Shown: piece after piece, positions 8-38,709 of the stretch | Layout: each line of letters begins with the position of its first letter | Numbering within the stretch: position 1 is the stretch's first letter | IMG/VR virus record: IMGVR_UViG_2654588006_000004 | Length of the DNA stretch: 48,692 nt | Strand: one strand, 5' to 3' | Origin: a virus | Lineage: Duplodnaviria > Heunggongvirae > Uroviricota > Caudoviricetes | Program-made: the position numbers and the translations under genes | The notes under the pieces: model-generated | What the model was told of the DNA's origin: nothing | Seen by the model: the letters and a program-made list of their open reading frames with translations, nothing else | The model's database searches: none

Positions 8-40
8 CCGCAGCACGTTCTTGCGCACGACGTGCTGCGG
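8..40. repeat. Perfect 11-bp inverted repeat (CCGCAGCACGT / ACGTGCTGCGG) with 11-nt spacer, just 3' of tfa
   Basis: Read directly: 8-18 is the reverse complement of 30-40. No U-tract follows on the minus strand, so not a canonical intrinsic terminator. Confidence 0.5.
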
Positions 41-54
41 CATAATCCCAATGA

Positions 55-639
55 TTACTCCCTGACAGGATTTGCAGGCCACTCAATATCAGGTGCAGTT
101 GATGTATCAACACGGTTCAGCAATACCCGATACTTCTTCCAGGCTTCCAGCAACGACGCCTCTTCTTCCGTTGCGATCTCCAGATCTACAGCATCCTGAA
201 GCGGCGCTATATGCTCACTGGCTACCTGCATCAGGCTGTTTTTTGTTTCTTCCGCCTCCCGGATCCGGAACAGTTTTTCTGCTTCCGTATCCTTCACCCA
301 GACTGTACCGTTCCACTTCTGAAACTCCCCTTCCGGGGATAACCAGGTGACATTTTCCGGTAATGAGCCGAGTTCAGAAATAAATAACGCGTCGCCGGAA
401 GCCACGTCATAGACCGTTTTACCACGATGGTCTTCAACGAGATGCCACGATGCCTCATCACTGTTGAAAACAGCCACGAAGCCTGCCGGAATATCTGGCG
501 GTGCAATATCGGTACTGTTTGCAGGCAGACCTGTATGAGGCGGAATATATGCGTCACCTTCACCAATAAATTCATTAGTTCCGGCCAGCAGGTTATAAAT
601 TTTTATGGTCCGTGCTTGTTCACTCATTCTGAATGCCAT
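55..639 (-). CDS. tfaR: Tail fibre assembly protein (Tfa)
   Basis: 194-aa ORF immediately downstream of the side tail fibre gene; resembles lambda/Rac Tfa. Start codon overlaps the stf stop at 639. Confidence 0.85.
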
Positions 640-3600
640 TATGCGAGCCTCACAATATAGTTAAATGCGATGTTTTTGACGGTGTTTTCCGCGTTACCAG
701 CAGCGTTAACGGTGATGGTGTGTCCATGTGAGCCAATCGCAACCGAGTGCGTATGCGCACCAATACCTACAGTATGTGCATGTGCGCCAGAACTTGCTGC
801 AGTACCAGACAGCGAGTGGGTATGAGCACCTGCTGACTGTGTCTGAATACGTTGATAATACGATCTACTGGAAGAAGTCCCCGGGCTTACTTGATACTGT
901 GAATCCTTGACATAAGTGAACCCACCGCCATCATAAAATGCTAACGCAGAACCGCCGCCTCCTGGCCAACGAATACCATTACCATGAGTATGAGCACCGG
1001 CAGACCCCGTAGAGCCACTCAGACTGTGCGTATGCGCCCCGGTGTTATTCGTGGATTTAGTGCCGTAATCAAACGACGATGTGGTTTTCGTCCCCAAATC
1101 CGTACTGGATGCGCTGGCGCTGTGGGTGTGCGATTTAATGCCGTCCTGTTCCTGAGACAATACGGCACGACCACTGGCAGGTTTGCCCTTAATCGTCCAG
1201 CCACGCATATCAGGGATCACGCCTGACGGATAAGCGGCAGCAAGTTTCGGGTAGGCAGATTTGTCAAAAGTCTGCCCCTGCATCAGGGCATAACCAGACG
1301 GAACGGTATCTGATGGCCACGGGATTGGTGCGCCGACTGGGTAGCTTTCTGGTGGAAGATTTTTCGAGGTATAAACTTCTGCCCAGTCTTCCTCAAAACC
1401 ATAGCCATCTCTTGAAGAACGGTAGAACAGACCACCATTTCTGTAATGCGCCTTCATCTGCAGGGTCCGGCAACTTCCGACTCCGGTATAGAAGTTAACC
1501 AGAATATAGCTGTCGCCAGAGCGGGTGACATTATAAGCGCCTGATTCGGCATTCCAGGGAACGCCACCATCCGCATCGGCATATGTATCCGTTGCCCTTC
1601 TGGCAAAAGCAGCCACATGCGCGGCGGTTAAAGTAATATCTCTGGAACCATCAAACTCAACACCAGAAACCCGTCTTGGCGTTTGCAGCTTTGTTGCTGT
1701 TAATGCATTACCGTTCAGACTTGCGGACAGTTTGGTTCCAATAACCAGTTCGCCGGTTGCGTTATCAATAGCAAACGGTCTTAATGTATTCCAGCCACCA
1801 TAAACATCACCTTGATTGGTAAGCAGCAGGTAAGTTTTAGCGCCATCATTACGCCATAATGCACCATACTCCCCACCTATCATTCGAATCTGATTACCAC
1901 CACGCGCTACAATTTCGTCTGTGGCAAAAAGTTTTTTGCACGACAAGTTATCGTTAACGATTAACGAATGAGACTCATAAAAACCACGGCCACTCTTAAA
2001 ATCAAGGATAACGTCCGCCGCGATACATTCAGTCGCTGGATTTGTTGCCCCAAACTTATAGGTCGTATCATTAACAACGAGATCAGCACCAGGTGCGGAT
2101 ATTGACAGGCCATCTTCAATAAACGCAAAAACAGGGAAAGCAGCACCATCAACATAGAACACAGAGCGCAAATCATCGCCCTTATTACTCATCATTATTG
2201 AGTGGATGGCTCGTTCATTGTTTTGATATTGCCAGAACATTCCATAAGCATAACGCCCCCTGTCAGTCCAGCCACCAGGCATAACAAACCCGTTAAACTC
2301 GCAGTTATTCATCGGATCGCCTGCGGTTCGCGTTGCCGTGGTGATAATGACCCTTGATGCCAGTTCGCTTACTGAGCCAGCAGAACGCATAACAACAACA
2401 GGGTAATATCTTCCAGATATTGCACCTGCAGGAGCGTTAACCCGCACATAACGCATACCACGCTTATCAGCAAAGTCTGTTTTACTGACCGCGTTAATGT
2501 TGTTCAGGAAGCGTCCCTTATCGGGTATATCAGCGCCGTTCTGGTCTTTCTGCAGACGTTTCTCTGCATTGTCATAGGCTGATTTTACTGCCTTTGGCGT
2601 TGCCGCCAGCGTTTCAGACGAACTGTTGGTCGCACTGCTGAGCTGTACTATCCCCTTTTTCGTCGTGCTCGCATCCTCAAGCGCCACGGCGGATGCAATA
2701 TCCTCTGCCCGTTTTGCCGCTGTCTCAGCGCGCGTTGCTGCGGATTCCGCCGTACTTTTGCTCTGAGCTGCTGCCGTCGCACTGCCAGCTGCCTCTGTCG
2801 CCTTCGTGGATGCCGTCGTGGCGCTGCTCTTCGCTGCTGACGCCTGTCTGGTCGCCTCATCTTTTGAAGCAGACGCAGATGATGCCGATGACGCTGCCGA
2901 ACTGGCGGACGATGCGGCTGCCGTTTTTGAGGATTCTGCACGGGTTTCCGACGCTTTCGCATTCGTTTCGGATGTCTTCGCTGCGGAAGCAGACCTCGCT
3001 GCTGCGCTGGCCTGTACAGCGGCTTCGCCAGCCTTCGTTGTGGCTGTTGAAGCGGACGATGCAGCACTTTCTGCCGATTTTCCGGCGGCGGTGGCACTGG
3101 CTGAGGCCTGCCCGGCATTTGTTGACGCGGCGCTGGCAGATGAGGCAGCCGCTGTTTTTGAGTCTGCTGCTGCGGAGGCACTCTGTGCTGCTGCCGTCTC
3201 AGAAGACTTAGCGTTCGTCTCGGACGTTTTTGCCGCCTTCGCGGAATTTCCTGCCGCTGTTGCCGAGGAAGCTGCGCTGCTGGCGCTCGAGGCTGCGCTC
3301 GTTTCTGATGATTTTGCCGCCTCTTTTGAAGCCGACGCATCCCGGGCTGAGGTGGCAGCTTCTGACGCTTTCGTGGTCGCGGTGGATGCTGAAGTGGCTG
3401 CTGATTGTTGTGACGCTGCCGCATTCGTTTCTGACGTTTTTGCCGCAGCGGCACTGGTGGCCGCCGCGCTTTTTGAGGACTCTGCAGCGGCAGCACTTTT
3501 TGATGCTTCAGTGGCCTTTGCTGATGCCGTTCCTGCGCTGGAAGACGCTGACTGAGCCGACGAAGCGGCCTGTCCGGCTGACGTGCTGGCTGCGCGTGCT

Positions 3601-26333: not shown

Positions 26334-27791
26334 TTAGGAGCGCCAAAAAAAACCTGAAAACAATATAATAACAGGATAAATTTCAAGGCGACCAAGAATC
26401 ATAGCTATGCACATTAAATATTTTGCAATGTCATTAAGCACTCCGAATGACGATGCAGTAGCCCCAAAACCTAATCCCATATTATTAATACATGCAGCCA
26501 CTGTTGCAAATGATGTAAGAAAATCATATCCCATACCATTTAACACCAGTATAAAAAACACCGTGAAGAGAGTATAAAGAAAAAAGAAACTCCATACAGA
26601 CCTCATTACACGATCTGTAACTATCTTCCCTCCTACATTTACACTCAACAACGCTCTGGGATGAGAAAGCTGATTTATCTCGTGTTTGCTTTGTTTGAAA
26701 AGTATAAGAAATCGAAGTGACTTAATTCCACCACAAGTTGAACCTATACATCCCCCAAAGAAACTTGACAACAGCAAAAACACTATCGTGTGCGTGGGCC
26801 AGCTTGCATAATCCTGCGTAGCTAAACCATTATCAGTGAGCATGGAGCTGGCAAGAAAAAACGAATGAATAAAACTTCCATGCAAGTCATACATACCTAT
26901 ATGCCAGACCTGGAAAGAGGTAACAATGATCACCCCTAAGGCTATTAACAGAAAGAAACGAAGTTCAATATCTCTGATTAAAGGTTTTATCGTTTTCCTG
27001 CTAATAACAATATACCAAAGAGTGAAGTTGAAAGCCGATAGCAGGGAAAAAGAACCAGCCACCAGCTCAACCAAATAGTTATTAAAATATCCGATACTCT
27101 CGCTATGAGTTGAGAAACCACCAAGCGAAACTGTGGAAATCCCGTGACAAATAGCATCAAACAAAGGCATTCCTGCAAGTCTATAACAGACAATACAAGC
27201 AATACCTAATAAAGAATAAGTTATCCACAGTGTCCGTGACGTATCGGCCAGGCGGGGAGTGAGTTTGTCATCCTTAAATGGCCCCGGCATTTCTGACTGA
27301 TAAAGCTTTGCACCACCAATACCCAATAATGGCAATACAGCAACCGCCAGAACAATAACTCCTAAACCACCTATAAAATTTAACTGTGACCGATAGTACA
27401 AATATGCCCGAGGTAATGAACTAACATCATCAATTACAGTTGCTCCTGTTGTTGTTATTCCAGAAACCCCTTCAAACAGAGCATCAATGAACGTTAAATT
27501 AAGTTCTGAGTCAATCCATAAAGGGAATGCACTAATAACAGAAAACAAAATCCAAAACATTACAATTATAATAAACCCATCACGGGTACGTAATTGAATG
27601 CCAGATTTCTTAGTTGTATACCACGCTCCGCCACCAATGCAAAAAAATATAACGAAAGTTATAAAGAAAACGAACAGGCTTTTTTCTTTATAAAACAATG
27701 CTACAACCATTGGTGGCAACATTGAAAGACTATAGAGCCAAACCAGGAACCCACACATATGAGTAACAACTCTTACATGAGATGTATTCAT
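26334..27791 (-). CDS. trkG: Potassium uptake protein TrkG (TrkH family)
   Basis: Polytopic membrane protein whose sequence from MNTSHVRVVTHMCGF... matches the recalled K-12 TrkG (485 aa). The track start at 27809 is a TTG; the ATG at 27791 is more likely. AT-rich gene. Confidence 0.9.
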   Translation of the reverse strand: MNTSHVRVVTHMCGFLVWLYSLSMLPPMVVALFYKEKSLFVFFITFVIFFCIGGGAWYTTKKSGIQLRTRDGFIIIVMFWILFSVISAFPLWIDSELNLTFIDALFEGVSGITTTGATVIDDVSSLPRAYLYYRSQLNFIGGLGVIVLAVAVLPLLGIGGAKLYQSEMPGPFKDDKLTPRLADTSRTLWITYSLLGIACIVCYRLAGMPLFDAICHGISTVSLGGFSTHSESIGYFNNYLVELVAGSFSLLSAFNFTLWYIVISRKTIKPLIRDIELRFFLLIALGVIIVTSFQVWHIGMYDLHGSFIHSFFLASSMLTDNGLATQDYASWPTHTIVFLLLSSFFGGCIGSTCGGIKSLRFLILFKQSKHEINQLSHPRALLSVNVGGKIVTDRVMRSVWSFFFLYTLFTVFFILVLNGMGYDFLTSFATVAACINNMGLGFGATASSFGVLNDIAKYLMCIAMILGRLEIYPVIILFSGFFWRS

Positions 27792-27928
27792 ATCTAAATA
27801 TTCTTTCAATTATAACCACCTTGCTGCAATATTATGATTATACTGTATAAAATTTAACTCCTCTTAGATCTTACTTCACTGTTCCTTATGAAACAATCAT
27901 CAAAATGAATCATATTGTAGTTAAGATT

Positions 27929-33530: not shown

Positions 33531-34113
33531 TTCTCAATCTCTCGATGGCGCAGCGCAGCAGATGCCAGTTGTTCAGGCTGACGTATGAAGTATAAATAAA
33601 CTGGCTCCAGTGTAAAGCCCCCACCTTAATGGAATAAAAACCAAACAACAGATTGCTGGGATACAAACAACGCTTATTATTAAAAGCGGTTAAACAAATT
33701 AAATTTTAATGTTATGCAAATCTGCCAGATCACCATAATATCTCATTTGAAAACCGCTGAAATAACAACCCTACCAGGGTTAAGAATATTAAGGTGAGTA
33801 AATATGGAAAACAACAAATTTGCACATTACGTTCCTTTTTTATCTGTAATACTTTTTGTTTTATGCTGTGCGTGGGCATTATTTTTATAAAAATATTCAC
33901 AGATAAAATATACCTGCCAAAGCTGATTAAGTGCGGGTGCGTTGAGGAGGCCTGACACATCAGAGGTGGCGAGGGATTCTTCATCATCTAACCAGCAACC
34001 TTAACTTTGGGATTCACTAATTTAAGTACGCTAAAGGTGTTAAAACCCCGAGCCACCCAGGGACTGCTTGAAAAGTATATAAAAATCAATATCAACTATC
34101 GATTTTACCTAAA

Positions 34114-34127
34114 TGTTATGATATAAA
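34114..34127 (+). promoter_or_regulatory. Candidate extended -10 element (TGTTATGAT / TATAAA) for the island gene
   Basis: TG-n-TATGAT at 34114-34122, overlapping TATAAA at 34122-34127, about 60 nt upstream of the ATG; no good -35. Confidence 0.25.
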
Positions 34128-34184
34128 AAGTTAGCGTATCATTACGCATCCACAATATTCGAAGGTTTCCATATTCAATGTAAG

Positions 34185-36659
34185 ATGTCGACAAAGGCCT
34201 ATTATTCTATGGATATCATAACAAAAATCATTGAAGACGCTCAAAAATTACAGTTATCCTCTGCAAATGAAGCTGAAACACGCCTTAAGATCATAGATCA
34301 AATACTCTTTGAAGTATTGAAGTGGACTAGGGATGATGTATCGGTAGAAACTCGAGTTAGCGAAGATGGCGAGACTACTTTTGCTGATTATGTCATTAAA
34401 ACAGCAAGTACTGCGTTTATAATTGAAGCAAAAAAAATTGGTCAGGCATTCGACACAAAACAATTCGATAGGAGACTGAAACTCAACAACAATAATCTTT
34501 CCGGTCCTTTTGGAGATGCCATAATTCAAGCAAGAGATTATTGTAGAAAACTGAGCATTCAATTTGCTGTTGTAACTAATGGTGAACAATGGGTTATATT
34601 CCCAGCAAATAGAACGGATCAAGTTGCATTCAACTCATCTTACGCAATTGTATTTAACAATTTACAAAGTGCACTTAAAGATGACTATACAGAATTTTAT
34701 GACTTATTATCAAGAAAAGCAGTTATAAACTCTAGCCTTGAAGTTACTTTATTAGGCAACAGGGAAGATCAAATAGAAGAAAGACGCTTAAAAAATACAG
34801 TCCGTAAAAGTATCTCTTATGATGCAAAGAATCCAATATACCCATTAGTCGAAGAAGCAATTATCACTTCATTTTCAGATACAATAACAGAAATCGACAA
34901 TGATCTTTTTGAAAGATGTTATGTAAATACTCCTGACAGGATGAAATTTGATAGGCGTATTAATATGCACATATCAAAAAGTCAACACCTCTTTAGTACG
35001 GCGCCTATAAGACCGATGCAAAAAAGAGATGCTAATGTTTTTAAAGAATCACTATTACGAGCAAAAAAGAATTCAAAACCTTTAGCTATTGTTATATTAG
35101 GAACTGTTGGCGCAGGTAAAACCACATTTTTACATTACACACGAAATATATCTGCCGCATCGTATTTCGAAAAATCAAATAATAAACCCTATCCTCATTG
35201 GATAAAGGTGGATTTTTTACAATACACGAATGACGAGTCCCCTATAGACTACATTTATAATATAATAAAAAACTATATTATAAGTGATCCATTTTTTTGC
35301 AATTATGAGCTATGCATACAGAACGCATACAAAGATGAGATAACTTCTATAAAAAAAGGACCTGCATTTCTTATTGCGAAGGATGAAGAAAAAATCAATC
35401 AACTAATTACAAACAAGCTACAAGCTGATTTTGACAAAGTTAAGCCATATGCTGATACTTTAATCAGCTATGCAACGAAAAACACACCTGTTTTTCTTGT
35501 TGTGGATAACGTTGATCAACTCAGCGAAGAAGTCCAATCTCAAATTTTCACTGATTGTGTAGCATTTTCCCAGAGACTCAAATGTAATCTTGTTATATCA
35601 TTACGTAATTCTACATATGTTGAACACCGTAACTCCCCAGCGTTTAACGCATTTGATTTCGATCCTATTCTTATTGAACCACCAAAAGTAGAGGCTGTTT
35701 TATCTAAACGTTTTTTCTTAGCCAAAAATATGCTTGAAGGAGAAGAAGGTGATTTTCTTTCAGATAATGGGATAAGATTTCACGTTGATAACAAAGCCGA
35801 TTTAATAAGCTTATTACAAAGCTCTGTTTTAGGAACAGAAATCGGCAATTTACTTGAAGTACTTGCTGCCGGAGACATCAGAAATGCACTAAGAATGACA
35901 AGAGAATTTATTGAACATGGTTATACAAATCCAGGTAAAGCTATGCGAATATATAGTGAAGGTGGCAACTATATATTGCCTAAGCATGAGGCTCTCAGAG
36001 CGATACTGCTAGGGAACCAAGCTGTATATTCAGAGGCTTATTCATTGGTTGGCAACCCATTTGATTCAAGACTGGGAAGGACCAACTTCCAACTTTTGAG
36101 ACTATTCGTTTTAGCAGCATTAGTCCAATATAGTGCTGATCCTGCATTTCAATATATCGACGGAATTGACATCCGAAAACAACTTAGAAAAATTGGTGTC
36201 GGTGATGATGACTCAATTGCCATACTGCGTGATTTATGTAAATTACGCTTTATAAGCACGGCTGGTCATGATGTACCAGAATTCAAATCAAGTTTTTATC
36301 CTACAAGACTTGGGGGATATATTACTAAGGAGCTAATCAGTAATTTTACATTTGTTGAATGTACTATGATGGACTCATTCATTGCGAACGAAAAAGTTTG
36401 GGAAGATCTAAAAGGATTTGAACGTTTAATTATAAACTCCTCCAGCGATGTAATCAAAAGACTAGAATATAGAAAGGAACGAGCACAAATATTTTTTGAT
36501 TATATGCTAGAACTATATAGTTCGCTGCTTGAGGAAGCCAATAAACGTGTATTACCTAAAGAATGGCGCACCAATCCTTTGCAGGAAGCTAGATATTCCT
36601 TCATTGAAAATCTAAACAAAGCCCTGCAATCAGCACAGAGAAATTACGGGGAAAAATAA
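34185..36659 (+). CDS. Large nuclease/NTPase fusion: N-terminal HsdR-N/Mrr-like PD-(D/E)xK signature + P-loop NTPase + C-terminal helical domain; candidate defence protein
   Basis: 824 aa; FADYVIK...FIIEAKK (D68, E81, K83); Walker A GTVGAGKT (aa 306-313); Walker B-like VFLVVDNVDQL; sensor-2-like GDIRNALR; AT-rich; opposite strand to neighbours; own terminator. Confidence 0.7.
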   Translation: MSTKAYYSMDIITKIIEDAQKLQLSSANEAETRLKIIDQILFEVLKWTRDDVSVETRVSEDGETTFADYVIKTASTAFIIEAKKIGQAFDTKQFDRRLKLNNNNLSGPFGDAIIQARDYCRKLSIQFAVVTNGEQWVIFPANRTDQVAFNSSYAIVFNNLQSALKDDYTEFYDLLSRKAVINSSLEVTLLGNREDQIEERRLKNTVRKSISYDAKNPIYPLVEEAIITSFSDTITEIDNDLFERCYVNTPDRMKFDRRINMHISKSQHLFSTAPIRPMQKRDANVFKESLLRAKKNSKPLAIVILGTVGAGKTTFLHYTRNISAASYFEKSNNKPYPHWIKVDFLQYTNDESPIDYIYNIIKNYIISDPFFCNYELCIQNAYKDEITSIKKGPAFLIAKDEEKINQLITNKLQADFDKVKPYADTLISYATKNTPVFLVVDNVDQLSEEVQSQIFTDCVAFSQRLKCNLVISLRNSTYVEHRNSPAFNAFDFDPILIEPPKVEAVLSKRFFLAKNMLEGEEGDFLSDNGIRFHVDNKADLISLLQSSVLGTEIGNLLEVLAAGDIRNALRMTREFIEHGYTNPGKAMRIYSEGGNYILPKHEALRAILLGNQAVYSEAYSLVGNPFDSRLGRTNFQLLRLFVLAALVQYSADPAFQYIDGIDIRKQLRKIGVGDDDSIAILRDLCKLRFISTAGHDVPEFKSSFYPTRLGGYITKELISNFTFVECTMMDSFIANEKVWEDLKGFERLIINSSSDVIKRLEYRKERAQIFFDYMLELYSSLLEEANKRVLPKEWRTNPLQEARYSFIENLNKALQSAQRNYGEK

Positions 36660-36660
36660 A

Positions 36661-36700
36661 AAAAAGCCACACCTTACGGTGTGGCTCCTCTGTTGGTTTT
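36661..36700. terminator. Bidirectional intrinsic terminator between convergent genes
   Basis: A5-GCCACACC-TTAC-GGTGTGGC followed by TCCTCTGTTGGTTTT; A-run on the other side serves the minus strand. Confidence 0.7.
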
Positions 36701-37962: not shown

Positions 37963-38709
37963 TTACTTCGCAATTCCTGGCTGGACGACATTCGGACGCC
38001 AGCTCTCCCAGTTAAAATTCACCCATCGCCCGCCGTTCATGGTCATGCGATCCATAATCCGCTCGCCGAGCAATGTTTTCATGGCCTCATAGTTCAGGTT
38101 TGTCAGCATCCCCACGCTGCGCATCGACGCTGTCCGGCGATCAACAATCTGGTGCAGTACCACCTGCTCGTTTTTCGTCTCGCGCTGAATGCCAATTTCA
38201 TCAAGAACCAGCAGATCCACTTCGCACAGTTCCCGCAAAAATTTTTCGCCTGACTGCCCATCGTCATAGCTGGCGTGCAGGGCACTCATAACATCAGCCA
38301 CGGTAACCACAATCACTGTCTGACCGTCTTTCAGCAGGCGATTCCCGATAGCTGCCGCTAAGTGGTTCTTCCCGGTACCAGGTTTTCCGCTGAACGCAAA
38401 ATTTGTACACCCGGTCATCAGTTCATCAGCGATGGATTTCGCCTGACTCAACGCGTATCGCTGCCCTTCGTTCTGCACCTGGTAATTCGAAAACGAGCAT
38501 TTGCGGTGCAATGGCTGGATGCCAGAGCGATTCAGAATTTTTTCCACCCGCAACTGACGATTCTGACGGTTGATCTCCTCACAACGTTTCTGGCCTTCGG
38601 AAAGTTGCCACTCGCGCCACTCCGCTACCGTCTTGAATGGCGCGGTTACATGTGACGGGGCCAGTCTGCGGATACGTTCAAGAACATCGCCTGTCGCAAT
38701 ATTTTTCAT
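37963..38709 (-). CDS. ydaV: DnaC-like helicase loader (replication protein)
   Basis: 248 aa; Walker [16 protein letters not shown] and Walker B LLVLDEIG; matches recalled Rac YdaV. Confidence 0.9.

Follow-up and report, generated by a model that had tools for sequence, protein, structure and literature searches.

Does a P-loop NTPase that carries asparagine where the catalytic glutamate of its Walker B motif is expected work as a fast ATPase or as a nucleotide-bound switch, and to which of the known clades does it belong? The question is raised by a gene of IMGVR_UViG_2654588006_000004, a record of 48,692 nucleotides from a tailed virus of the Caudoviricetes, which is the window analysed here. 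An earlier note on this DNA, made from the letters alone, had singled out the asparagine and suggested a STAND-like switch or an unusual clade. To answer the question, we examine the gene and its surroundings, the conservation of the motif, the domains of the protein and the known systems that it resembles.

The gene, its island and its distribution

The gene is a solitary, opposite-strand cargo in a Rac-like prophage (Table 1). GC content drops to 0.34 within its island, at 34-36 kb, from ~0.45-0.53 on either side. The left edge was placed at ~33979, where homology to other Rac-like prophages ends, and the right edge was set by the stop codon of the gene and a terminator. The GC-rich hairpin directly 3' of that stop codon has a 14-bp stem with 6 GC pairs and a T-run on the minus strand, and is the terminator-like site of the converging DUF977/replication operon. 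A scan for sigma-70 promoters upstream of the gene gave 15 sites, compared with 13.7 expected, none of them above background. Homologues start at the equivalent of M9, and the true start is probably this methionine (ATG at 34209), which would yield a protein of 816 residues; RefSeq holds the 816-residue form as WP_040091717.1, named “P-loop NTPase fold protein”. The ORF also matches phrog_14719 over its full length (2e-156), a family whose annotated function is unknown, and a literature search retrieved no experiment or publication on this nuclease-NTPase family.

Table 1. Features of the nuclease-NTPase gene and its island, with positions in the window and residues numbered along the 824-residue ORF.
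Feature	Position	Strand	Basis
Low-GC (~34%) single-gene cargo island of a Rac-like lambdoid prophage, flanked by its DUF1367 (NinB-like) and DUF977 genes	33979..36700		GC drop and homology break
ORF of 824 aa (coding part 34185-36656)	34185..36659	+	Translation; stop codon at end
PD-(D/E)xK nuclease, HsdR-N type, aa ~20-190	34242..34754	+	Pfam profiles and invariant residues
D68-Y69	34386-34391	+	Invariant nuclease residues
E81-A82-K83	34425-34433	+	Invariant nuclease residues
Helical linker, aa 191-295	34755..35069	+	Model and conservation; partly low-confidence in model
Walker A / P-loop GTVGAGKT, aa 306-313	35100..35123	+	G306, G311 and K312 invariant
Six-helix insert, aa 353-433 (~80 aa), separating strand 2 from the Walker B strand	35241..35483	+	DSSP of model
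Walker B VFLVV-D441-N442-V-D444-Q445-L, aa 436-446	35490..35522	+	Strand and conservation
N442 codon AAC	35508-35510	+	Translation
Strand 4 ending in sensor-1 R474, NLVISLR	35586..35606	+	Strand 468-473 in model
Helical lid, aa 501-612	35685..36020	+	Model and conservation
Sensor-2-like motif G-[DN]-x-R566-x-A-L, opening helix 565-578	35871-35882	+	R566 in 246/248
H601 in PxHE, conserved	35985-35987	+	202/245
Winged-helix domain, three helices then a beta hairpin, aa 638-707	36096..36305	+	Model
Short C-terminal helical region, aa 708-824, with a long helical hairpin at 756-821	36306..36656	+	Model and conservation
Terminator-like GC-rich hairpin directly 3' of the stop codon	36660..36691	-	14-bp stem, 6 GC pairs; T-run on minus strand

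The island is rare, with only 7 carriers among 5426 complete E. coli genomes, but the family has about 2,050 representative clusters at E<=1e-3, which extend beyond the Proteobacteria. Other members lie between the portal and gpA genes of a P2-like prophage, in a PM2-like prophage, at the edge of a filamentous prophage, in a phage-plasmid-like replicon and on a conjugative plasmid, and elsewhere as a single-gene insertion between housekeeping genes. A tblastn search of 50,697 deposited phage genomes returned no match to the protein, and what megablast recovered from deposited phage genomes was limited to 67-79 bp of prophage backbone in the flank. In E. coli B4103-1, the same slot is occupied by proteins that resemble known defence proteins, matching the PADLOC models PD-Lambda-2_C (1.7e-41) and cII (2.4e-28). 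No methyltransferase partner gene was present in the loci examined. At the phage-plasmid locus, a phage DNA methyltransferase gene is found ~4 kb off, not adjacent.

An amide in the Walker B motif and the domains around it

In the AlphaFold2 model of the protein (mean pLDDT 79.6; secondary structure by DSSP), the P-loop, a GxxxxGK[ST] motif, follows strand 301-305, the first of the sheet, and VFLVVD forms beta-strand 436-441, which terminates at D441 and is the central strand of the P-loop sheet. Strand 468-473 ends at R474, and the motif assignment thus fits the fold. The earlier note had read VFLVVDNVDQL as a Walker B-like stretch with Asn at the Glu position, a reading borne out by the translation, and had named a canonical hhhhDE elsewhere as the case against it; the regular expression [hydrophobic]x3-D-[DE], run over the whole 824 residues, had no occurrence, so that no canonical Walker B is hidden in another part of the protein. 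Its estimate of about 130 residues between Walker A and Walker B agrees with the 129 residues that we count from K312 to D441. This long spacing is due to the helical insert between strands 2 and 3, which is more variable than average and soluble rather than transmembrane (top Kyte-Doolittle 19-residue window 0.74).

Conservation was evaluated on 104 full-length cluster representatives (clustering at 50% identity; 20-49% identity with the query and a mean column identity of 25%) and on a wider alignment, made with hmmalign, of all 270 retrieved sequences, 249 of which cover the Walker B site at identities down to about 20%. Only 14 columns are invariant in the representatives, K312, D441, N442 and D444 among them, and each of these four residues is present in 249/249 sequences of the wider set. 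The hydrophobic strand therefore always ends in Asp, followed by Asn in place of an acidic residue. Q445 is Gln in 224/249 sequences and otherwise Leu, Arg, His, Pro or Val, but Glu in none, and the broad alignments contain no other conserved Glu in the NTPase domain. Conservation of D441, N442 and D444 is, on these alignments, far beyond chance, and the D-N-h-D-Q Walker B is a real family signature, although it departs only modestly from immune NTPases already known.

The rest of the NTPase module is conserved at further positions. R474, at the end of strand 4, is found in 244/247 sequences within the family consensus hhh[SA]LR[EP]E (position 475 is Pro in 33/104 and Glu in 59/104), and this motif, in the form hhh[ST]xR[PE], resembles the TSRP motif of STAND and NACHT sensor 1. 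The lid residue R509 is near-invariant (247/248), as is N624 across 244-249 sequences, and R566, from its position and motif, may act as sensor 2; in one divergent member, a Pfam ORC-CDC6-like match falls exactly over the lid helix with R566. Neither a conserved arginine finger nor a conserved Arg between strands 4 and 5 was seen in the broad alignments. The net charge is 0 for the winged-helix domain and -2 for the lid. The tail of ~115 residues after the winged-helix domain is too short for a repeat sensor of the Avs type.

Upstream of the NTPase, the N-terminal domain scores 26.7 bits against Pfam HSDR_N_2, above the cut-off of 25, and 22.3 bits against HSDR_N, and is also matched by the N-terminal domains of the PADLOC models DrmMI and type IIG REase. 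E55, D68, Y69, E81, A82, K83 and Q115 do not vary among the 104 representatives, and Y119, which completes the QxxxY motif begun by Q115, is present in 103/104. With both the D...(D/E)xK core and QxxxY in place, the HsdR-N-type nuclease domain is intact. The linker that joins it to the NTPase is among the least conserved parts of the protein. Differences in entropy between domains are small, and no domain is markedly hypervariable.

Affinities of the NTPase module

The best fold matches to the model are Cdc6/Orc1, then TnsC, BrxC (including “Walker B mutant” structures), CED-4, NLRs and RdrA, in an order that Foldseek reproduced identically. The fold is the base-lid-winged-helix module common to Cdc6/Orc and STAND proteins, and transposase ATPases also have the base and winged-helix domain in common with both. 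Pfam searches over 53 diverse members matched AAA_16 in 44, AAA_22 in 38, nSTAND5 in 29, NACHT in 23 and KAP in 10 (KAP and NACHT at E<0.01), which, together with the fold, upholds the STAND-like assignment made from the sequence alone. The scores are low: among the inspected members AAA_16 exceeds its cut-off in only one (38.3 vs 32.6), and nSTAND5 (at most 30.4 vs 34) and NACHT (25.7 vs 26.7) stay below their gathering cut-offs. Almost no specific NTPase model of Pfam attains its gathering score in most members, in agreement with the unusual clade that had been offered as an alternative.

Other collections were less specific. NCBIfam gave only a sub-threshold P-loop match, and the viral folds of BFVD only generic RFC/AAA+ matches. 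Profile searches of solved structures, with the full-length protein and with the NTPase only, were rejected as a means of classification, the matches being almost only P-loop fragments (midasin, kinases, GTPases, ABCE1) with one marginal Cdc6 match (2qby_A, E 0.039) over the Walker B region. No model of PADLOC v2.0.0 covers the protein, and matches are restricted to single domains: DrmMI, type IIG REase and PDC-M54B match the N-terminal nuclease fold only, and mad8 matches the NTPase weakly. In the absence of a full-length match, the protein is not a catalogued system in that version. A sensor-1 Arg without a trans-acting arginine finger is reportedly a defining feature of STAND proteins, and the family has R474 and no conserved Arg between strands 4 and 5. 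By profile and fold, the NTPase appears to belong to the assemblage formed by STAND and Cdc6-Orc proteins, in an unusual and unnamed clade.

Within this assemblage, the closest parallel for the motif is the NACHT clade, defined by the extended Walker B D[GAS]hDE. The DNhDQ of the family lines up with it position by position, placing D444, as invariant as the Walker A lysine, at the site of the displaced acid, three residues downstream of the Asp that binds Mg, a result in line with the assisting role that the earlier note had proposed for the second Asp. Nevertheless, the family departs from the NACHT signature by an invariant Asn in place of the small residue and by Gln, never Glu, at +4, and differs also by its sensor-2-like Arg and the insert of 80 residues in the base domain. 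A DxhD pattern is known across the neighbourhood of NACHT, KAP and Cdc6, which makes the motif less exotic than the mere lack of hhhhDE implies. In architecture, bNACHT25, an Mrr-like restriction endonuclease fused to a NACHT module, follows the same logic as our protein, with an N-terminal effector of restriction-endonuclease fold and then P-loop base, lid and winged-helix domain. Some bNACHT clades have short C-termini, as this family does, but the arms-race signature of bNACHT01 is absent from it.

Avs nuclease proteins such as EcAvs4 and SeAvs3 show the same single-chain logic of effector and NTPase, and Avs proteins are active as ATP-bound oligomers that bring the N-terminal regions close together. 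They are tripartite, however, with a TPR-like repeat sensor of at least 400 residues, and no AVAST model is among the PADLOC v2.0.0 matches of our protein. Avs5, a SIR2-STAND protein, has a non-canonical Walker B, and its E410Q mutant (E-to-Q) still protects, from which its authors infer binding and not hydrolysis. It provides a precedent for a defence STAND protein that has no second acidic residue and still works once the carboxylate is lost, although it differs from this family by its motif (IIFIE-R), its SIR2 effector, its nSTAND3 domain and its large repeat sensor. Prophage-encoded STAND proteins are recognised as defence genes, and the catalogue of Lee et al. 2026 lists 589 STAND clades. 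Upx, a single-gene sensor bearing a nuclease, was considered and rejected as a relative: its nuclease is C-terminal and it has no NTPase.

On the side of the initiators, Orc1/Cdc6 proteins combine a DE Walker B, a small polar sensor 1 and an arginine finger, whereas the family has DN, Arg as sensor 1 and no conserved finger, and shares with them only the sensor-2-like Arg among these features. They act at replication origins, and the protein studied here is a nuclease fusion in mobile cargo. TnsC and BrxC have a canonical DE Walker B. Unlike our protein, they work in multi-protein systems and without a fused nuclease.

Proposed switch and alternative readings

The N-terminal nuclease and the prophage-cargo context point to the biology of the protein. 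We consider that the region between 35100 and 35920, which starts at Walker A, ends at residue 579 and includes R474 and R566, is probably the nucleotide-binding core of a single-chain, prophage-borne nuclease-NTPase of immune type, working as a nucleotide-state switch with slow or no hydrolysis. The protein itself is most likely an uncharacterised anti-phage protein, a nucleotide-gated and NLR-like defence nuclease. In such a protein, D441 would hold Mg2+, and D444 would be the sole other conserved carboxylate near the site, N442 and Q445 presenting amides where AAA+ and NACHT proteins carry carboxylates. The gamma-phosphate would be read by R474 as sensor 1 and by R566 in the manner of a sensor 2, and hydrolysis would be either slow and dependent on D444 or absent. 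A trigger linked to phage infection would lead to oligomerisation in the NTP-bound state, which would bring the nuclease domains together so that DNA is cut and the infection aborted or blocked, after the manner of nuclease-bearing Avs and bNACHT proteins. A slow or non-hydrolysing switch is plausible by analogy with Avs5, whose E-to-Q mutant retains defence, and with AAA+ proteins, where such a substitution traps ATP. NACHT proteins whose +1 residue is not acidic do hydrolyse ATP, so that the Asn alone is no proof of such a switch.

Several findings count against this explanation. No large repeat sensor follows the winged-helix domain, no domain stands out as hypervariable, the protein is covered by no PADLOC v2.0.0 model, and the literature search and the tblastn search of deposited phage genomes were both negative. 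The top structural matches are DNA-binding initiators (Cdc6/Orc, TnsC) and not NLRs, and a sensor-2 Arg belongs to AAA+ proteins more than to STAND proteins.

Among the alternatives, the one that survives best, although we regard it as unlikely, is a DNA sensor akin to ORC and TnsC. In its ATP state the module would bind DNA and oligomerise there, like Cdc6/Orc1, TnsC and BrxC, the Asn would hold it on the DNA with ATP locked in, and the HsdR-type nuclease would cut that same DNA, in a restriction-like response to invading or replicating DNA and not to a phage protein. The lack of a conserved arginine finger before strand 5 in the wider family argues against it, and so do the charges of the winged-helix domain and lid, and sequence profiles that favour STAND-type families. 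The sparing of self DNA would also be hard to explain with no methyltransferase partner at the loci.

Slightly less probable still, and clearly more speculative, is that the family forms a distinct, unnamed branch between Orc-Cdc6 AAA+ and STAND proteins, with an amide-fixed, ATP-locked switch of a single turnover serving an ORC-like immune nuclease on invading DNA. The absence of a repeat sensor, together with the closest likeness to DNA-loaded initiators, makes an ORC-like assembly directly on invading DNA, and not on a phage protein, possible. We know of no description of direct DNA assembly as a sensing mode for NLR-related bacterial proteins. The module would pair a sensor-1 Arg of the STAND kind with a sensor-2 Arg of the AAA+ kind, and at both places where a carboxylate might activate water, Walker B +1 and +4, an amide is fixed (Asn and Gln), in an “E-to-Q-like” arrangement.

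It is improbable that the protein is a plain P-loop NTPase of the KAP family, its Walker B and insert both usual for that family, fused to a nuclease. The query does score 23.8 against KAP PF07693, whose gathering score is 20, yet KAP matches a minority of the diverse members (10/53, compared with 44 for AAA_16) and RdrA is a far weaker fold match than Cdc6/Orc. The KAP NTPases, which include RdrA of RADAR, PifA and EF_KAP, typically carry transmembrane helices within or beside their NTPase domain, and their Walker B is DD (D246/D247 in EF_KAP), whereas our protein has no transmembrane segment anywhere (maximum 19-residue Kyte-Doolittle mean 1.32) and the family has DN in 249/249 sequences.

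A degenerate and catalytically dead scaffold resembling “iSTAND”, in which the Asn reflects decay of the active site, is very improbable. Bacterial conflict systems do include inactive STAND modules, and the loss of the Walker B +1 Glu/Asp with no other conserved Glu in the NTPase domain would suit one. Decay, however, gives variability, whereas K312, D441, N442, D444, R474, R509, R566 and N624 are near-invariant over 244-249 sequences, which implies that nucleotide binding and gamma-phosphate sensing are under strong selection and that the Asn itself has been selected. A misplaced Walker B, with a canonical acidic pair elsewhere in the fold, is effectively refuted by the lack of any hhhD[DE], by the central position of the DN strand in the modelled sheet and by Pfam AAA_16, AAA_22 and KAP matches that run from Walker A to strand 436-441.

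Were the preferred reading of a nucleotide-gated defence nuclease wrong, a correct, ordinary annotation would still stand, that of a STAND-like NTPase whose Walker B is specific to its lineage. If it is true, the family would represent widespread single-gene defence candidates that current defence-finding models have missed, borne by plasmids and by four unrelated kinds of prophage, and the DUF1367-DUF977 slot of Rac-like prophages would be a hotspot of defence cargo. The invariant D-N-x-D-Q would then amount to a natural experiment on the role of the Walker B +1 residue in NLR-type switches, and would bear on whether immune NTPases driven by oligomerisation need hydrolysis or merely the sensing of their nucleotide state.

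Walker B asparagine and its conservation

The NTPase core lies within a single large ORF whose longest form opens at the first of two ATG codons. The same sequence occurs unchanged in seven E. coli genomes, where RefSeq annotates it as WP_040091717.1 (‘P-loop NTPase fold protein’), an entry that begins 24 nt downstream, at M9; because all close homologues begin there too, this second ATG is probably the true start. We use ORF numbering throughout, RefSeq and database residue numbers being 8 lower. A sequence scan finds no hydrophobic-x3-D-[DE] string anywhere in the 824-aa protein, and in an AlphaFold2 model built from 30 homologues (mean pLDDT 79.6) the strand VFLVVD stops at D441, strand 301-305 precedes the P-loop and strand 468-473 stops at R474. 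For these two reasons the Walker B assignment proposed in the earlier note is right, and the observation of Asn where the catalytic Glu is expected is confirmed; what the note named as its refutation, a canonical hhhhDE at another site, does not occur in the protein. The spacing of about 130 residues between Walker A and B also stands (129 from K312 to D441) and is due to a helical insert that is soluble (peak Kyte-Doolittle 19-mer 0.74; whole-protein peak 1.32).

By sequence, the protein is a member of a large family of constant architecture. A word-indexed search of 5.8 billion proteins yields 595 matches, the best 120 of which are 811-878 aa long, bar one of 766 aa, and when 1.84 billion representatives of 50%-identity clusters are searched with a profile, 2,053 reach E<=1e-3, of which 580 also reach E<=1e-30. 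In 104 full-length representatives that share 20-49% identity with the query, at a mean column identity of 25%, just 14 columns never vary: eight in the nuclease (E55, D68, Y69, E81, A82, K83, Q115, G133), three in Walker A (G306, G311, K312), and D441, N442 and D444. When 270 retrieved sequences are aligned to the domain HMM, D441, N442, D444 and K312 are each present in all 249 that span the Walker B site; Q445 is Gln in 224 of these, the rest having L, R, H, P or V and none Glu, and Q451 is Gln in 230 sequences of the alignment. N442 is under selection as strong as that on the Walker A lysine, as a functional residue and not a product of decay.

Domain anatomy and placement among P-loop NTPases

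Features of the nuclease-NTPase gene and its surroundings (window coordinates)
Feature	Residues	Position	Strand	Remarks
Nuclease-NTPase ORF	1-824	34185-36659	+	longest ORF, ATG 34185
Probable start	M9	34209	+	second ATG
PD-(D/E)xK nuclease, HsdR-N type	~20-190		+	Pfam HSDR_N_2 26.7 bits, cut-off 25
Helical linker	191-295		+	variable, partly low-confidence
P-loop base domain	296-500		+	
Walker A/P-loop GTVGAGKT	306-313	first Gly at 35100	+	
Insert, ~80 aa	353-433		+	six helices, between strand 2 (338-343) and Walker B strand
Walker B-like VFLVVDNVDQL	436-446	35490-35522	+	
N442 codon AAC	442	35508-35510	+	
Helical lid	501-612		+	R509 near-invariant
H601 (PxHE)	601	35985-35987	+	
N624	624	36054-36056	+	near-invariant
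Winged helix	638-707		+	
Short helical tail	708-824		+	
Hairpin		36660-36691		14-bp stem
hokD downstream flank		33900-33978		79 bp
ydaV		37963-38709		intact 248-aa ORF
trkG		26334-27809		

The nuclease core (D68...E81-x-K83...Q115xxxY119) is fully conserved. R474, directly after strand 4, occurs in 244 of 247 sequences (family consensus hhh[SA]LR[EP]E), and the motif G-[DN]-x-R566-x-A-L (R566 in 246 of 248) opens helix 565-578, exactly across which Pfam ORC-CDC6-like matches in one divergent member. Between lid and winged helix lie H601, which is His in 202 of 245 sequences and Gln in 33, and N624, Asn in 243 of 244. NLR winged-helix domains have an ADP-sensing His, mutation of which hyperactivates bNACHT25 and NLRC4, and H601 could be its counterpart.

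Among 53 diverse members the commonest Pfam matches are AAA_16 (44; best E 1e-10), AAA_22 (38) and nSTAND5 (29), followed by NACHT (23; best 1.4e-8), ATPase_2 (11) and KAP (10), nearly all NTPase matches of the family lying under the gathering scores; the query passes that of KAP only (23.8 vs 20). A sensor-1 Arg without a conserved Arg finger is a STAND trait, and the family has this combination together with a GDxR-type sensor-2 Arg, which is AAA+/Cdc6-like. Its D-N-V-D-Q parallels the D-[GAS]-h-D-E of NACHT proteins position by position but breaks the NACHT definition at two of them. [quoted passage not shown] The earlier interpretation is partly supported: its suggestions of a STAND-like domain, of an unusual clade and of an assisting second Asp all stand up, this Asp being D444, which would correspond to the displaced acid in NACHT proteins.

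A putative nucleotide-state switch

The phosphate-contacting residues K312, D441, R474 and R566 are all conserved and the nuclease fused to the module is intact; D441 and D444 are the sole conserved carboxylates near the nucleotide site, with amides fixed at +1 and +4. The account that we consider rather likely is that of a nucleotide-state switch, in which D441 would bind Mg2+, D444 would stand in for the displaced acid, and N442 and Q445 would orient water or the gamma-phosphate but not serve as a base; the module would sense the state of its nucleotide while turning it over slowly or not at all. On the model of Avs and bNACHT nuclease proteins, a trigger would lift autoinhibition and let the NTP-bound form assemble into oligomers, whose gathered nuclease domains would cut DNA. 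Avs5 offers a precedent as a defence STAND protein with a dispensable Walker B carboxylate.

The main alternative, an ORC/TnsC-like assembly templated by DNA, would agree with how the fold matches rank, with an insert located where initiators have their specific motif, with the sensor-2 Arg, with the lack of a repeat sensor of any kind and with the rather even conservation between domains, but it seems doubtful given the absent conserved Arg finger, the non-basic WHD and no evident means of sparing self DNA. Plain KAP membership is unlikely, since the family lacks TM segments, has DN in Walker B and not the DD described for KAP proteins, and matches the KAP profile in just a minority of members; by these features the protein is not a typical KAP. 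Also unlikely are a dead scaffold, given the selection on N442, and a mis-assigned Walker B, given the strand end at D441 and the sequence scan.

It is already a hallmark of NACHT proteins that the Walker B Asp is followed by a non-acidic residue, and a non-canonical Walker B is documented for Avs5; to a specialist the finding would come as no great surprise. What is new is the combination of a D-N-h-D-Q that never varies, sensor residues of both STAND and AAA+ type, an HsdR-type nuclease and the lack of a large sensor domain, in a family that is widespread, escapes PADLOC v2.0.0 and has no publication that literature searches could find.

Cargo of prophages and other mobile elements

The window is a Rac-like lambdoid prophage with the gene order tail proteins, TrkG, lysis, DUF1133/DUF1364/DUF1367, nuclease-NTPase gene, DUF977, DUF1627, YdaV, YdaU, RacR and RecE. 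The nuclease-NTPase gene is the sole + strand gene within a minus-strand block, and its island (34% GC) occurs in only 7 of 5,426 complete E. coli genomes. The strong hairpin directly after its stop codon carries a minus-strand T-run; transcription of the converging DUF977/replication operon would end there, which would protect the + strand gene against antisense read-through. Backbone homology with the Rac-like prophages of E. coli A2 (L014) and B4103-1 (L015), over 33531-33978, stops at ~33979; in other prophages the type I toxin gene hokD comes immediately after this boundary, followed by variable cargo. In the window no hokD coding sequence stands at this point, and its downstream flank, found in 2,836 of the 5,426 genomes, alone remains; it looks as though the island has taken the place of hokD. 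In B4103-1, proteins of the DUF1367-DUF977 slot (L015 6810-8445) match PADLOC PD-Lambda-2_C (1.7e-41) and cII of gop-beta-cII (2.4e-28), and the slot therefore holds defence genes. The A2 slot (L014 6537-7870) codes for two hypothetical proteins, neither of them matched by PADLOC; these, too, may be uncharacterised cargo.

Elsewhere in the prophage, ydaV (DnaC-like), which adjoins the island, carries the annotation of a frameshifted pseudogene in strain VTB97022v (L001 13064-13809), the island region being otherwise 100% identical. The potassium-transporter gene trkG, a known Rac cargo gene unrelated to the NTPase finding, lies in a second low-GC stretch (0.37-0.40).

Homologues occupy diverse settings. 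In the P2-like prophage of Serratia liquefaciens an 88%-identical homologue is flanked by the portal gene and gene A, a location that we take to be the old/tin cargo position; directly behind the CI repressor gene, a KAP_NTPase gene (L006/L007 15827-16451) would be a second candidate defence cargo of that prophage. Others are carried by a PM2-like Vibrio prophage, by IncF conjugative plasmids and by a Klebsiella replicon that has phage genes and resembles a phage-plasmid, and one lies at the edge of a filamentous Kerstersia prophage; in Pseudomonas, Marinomonas and Shewanella the homologue is a single-gene insertion between housekeeping genes, the Marinomonas copy adjoining HigBA and Fic. No homologue locus examined has an adjacent methyltransferase, and the homologues are solitary in every setting examined. 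Such a solitary distribution over mobile elements is what one would expect if the gene were a self-contained defence gene.
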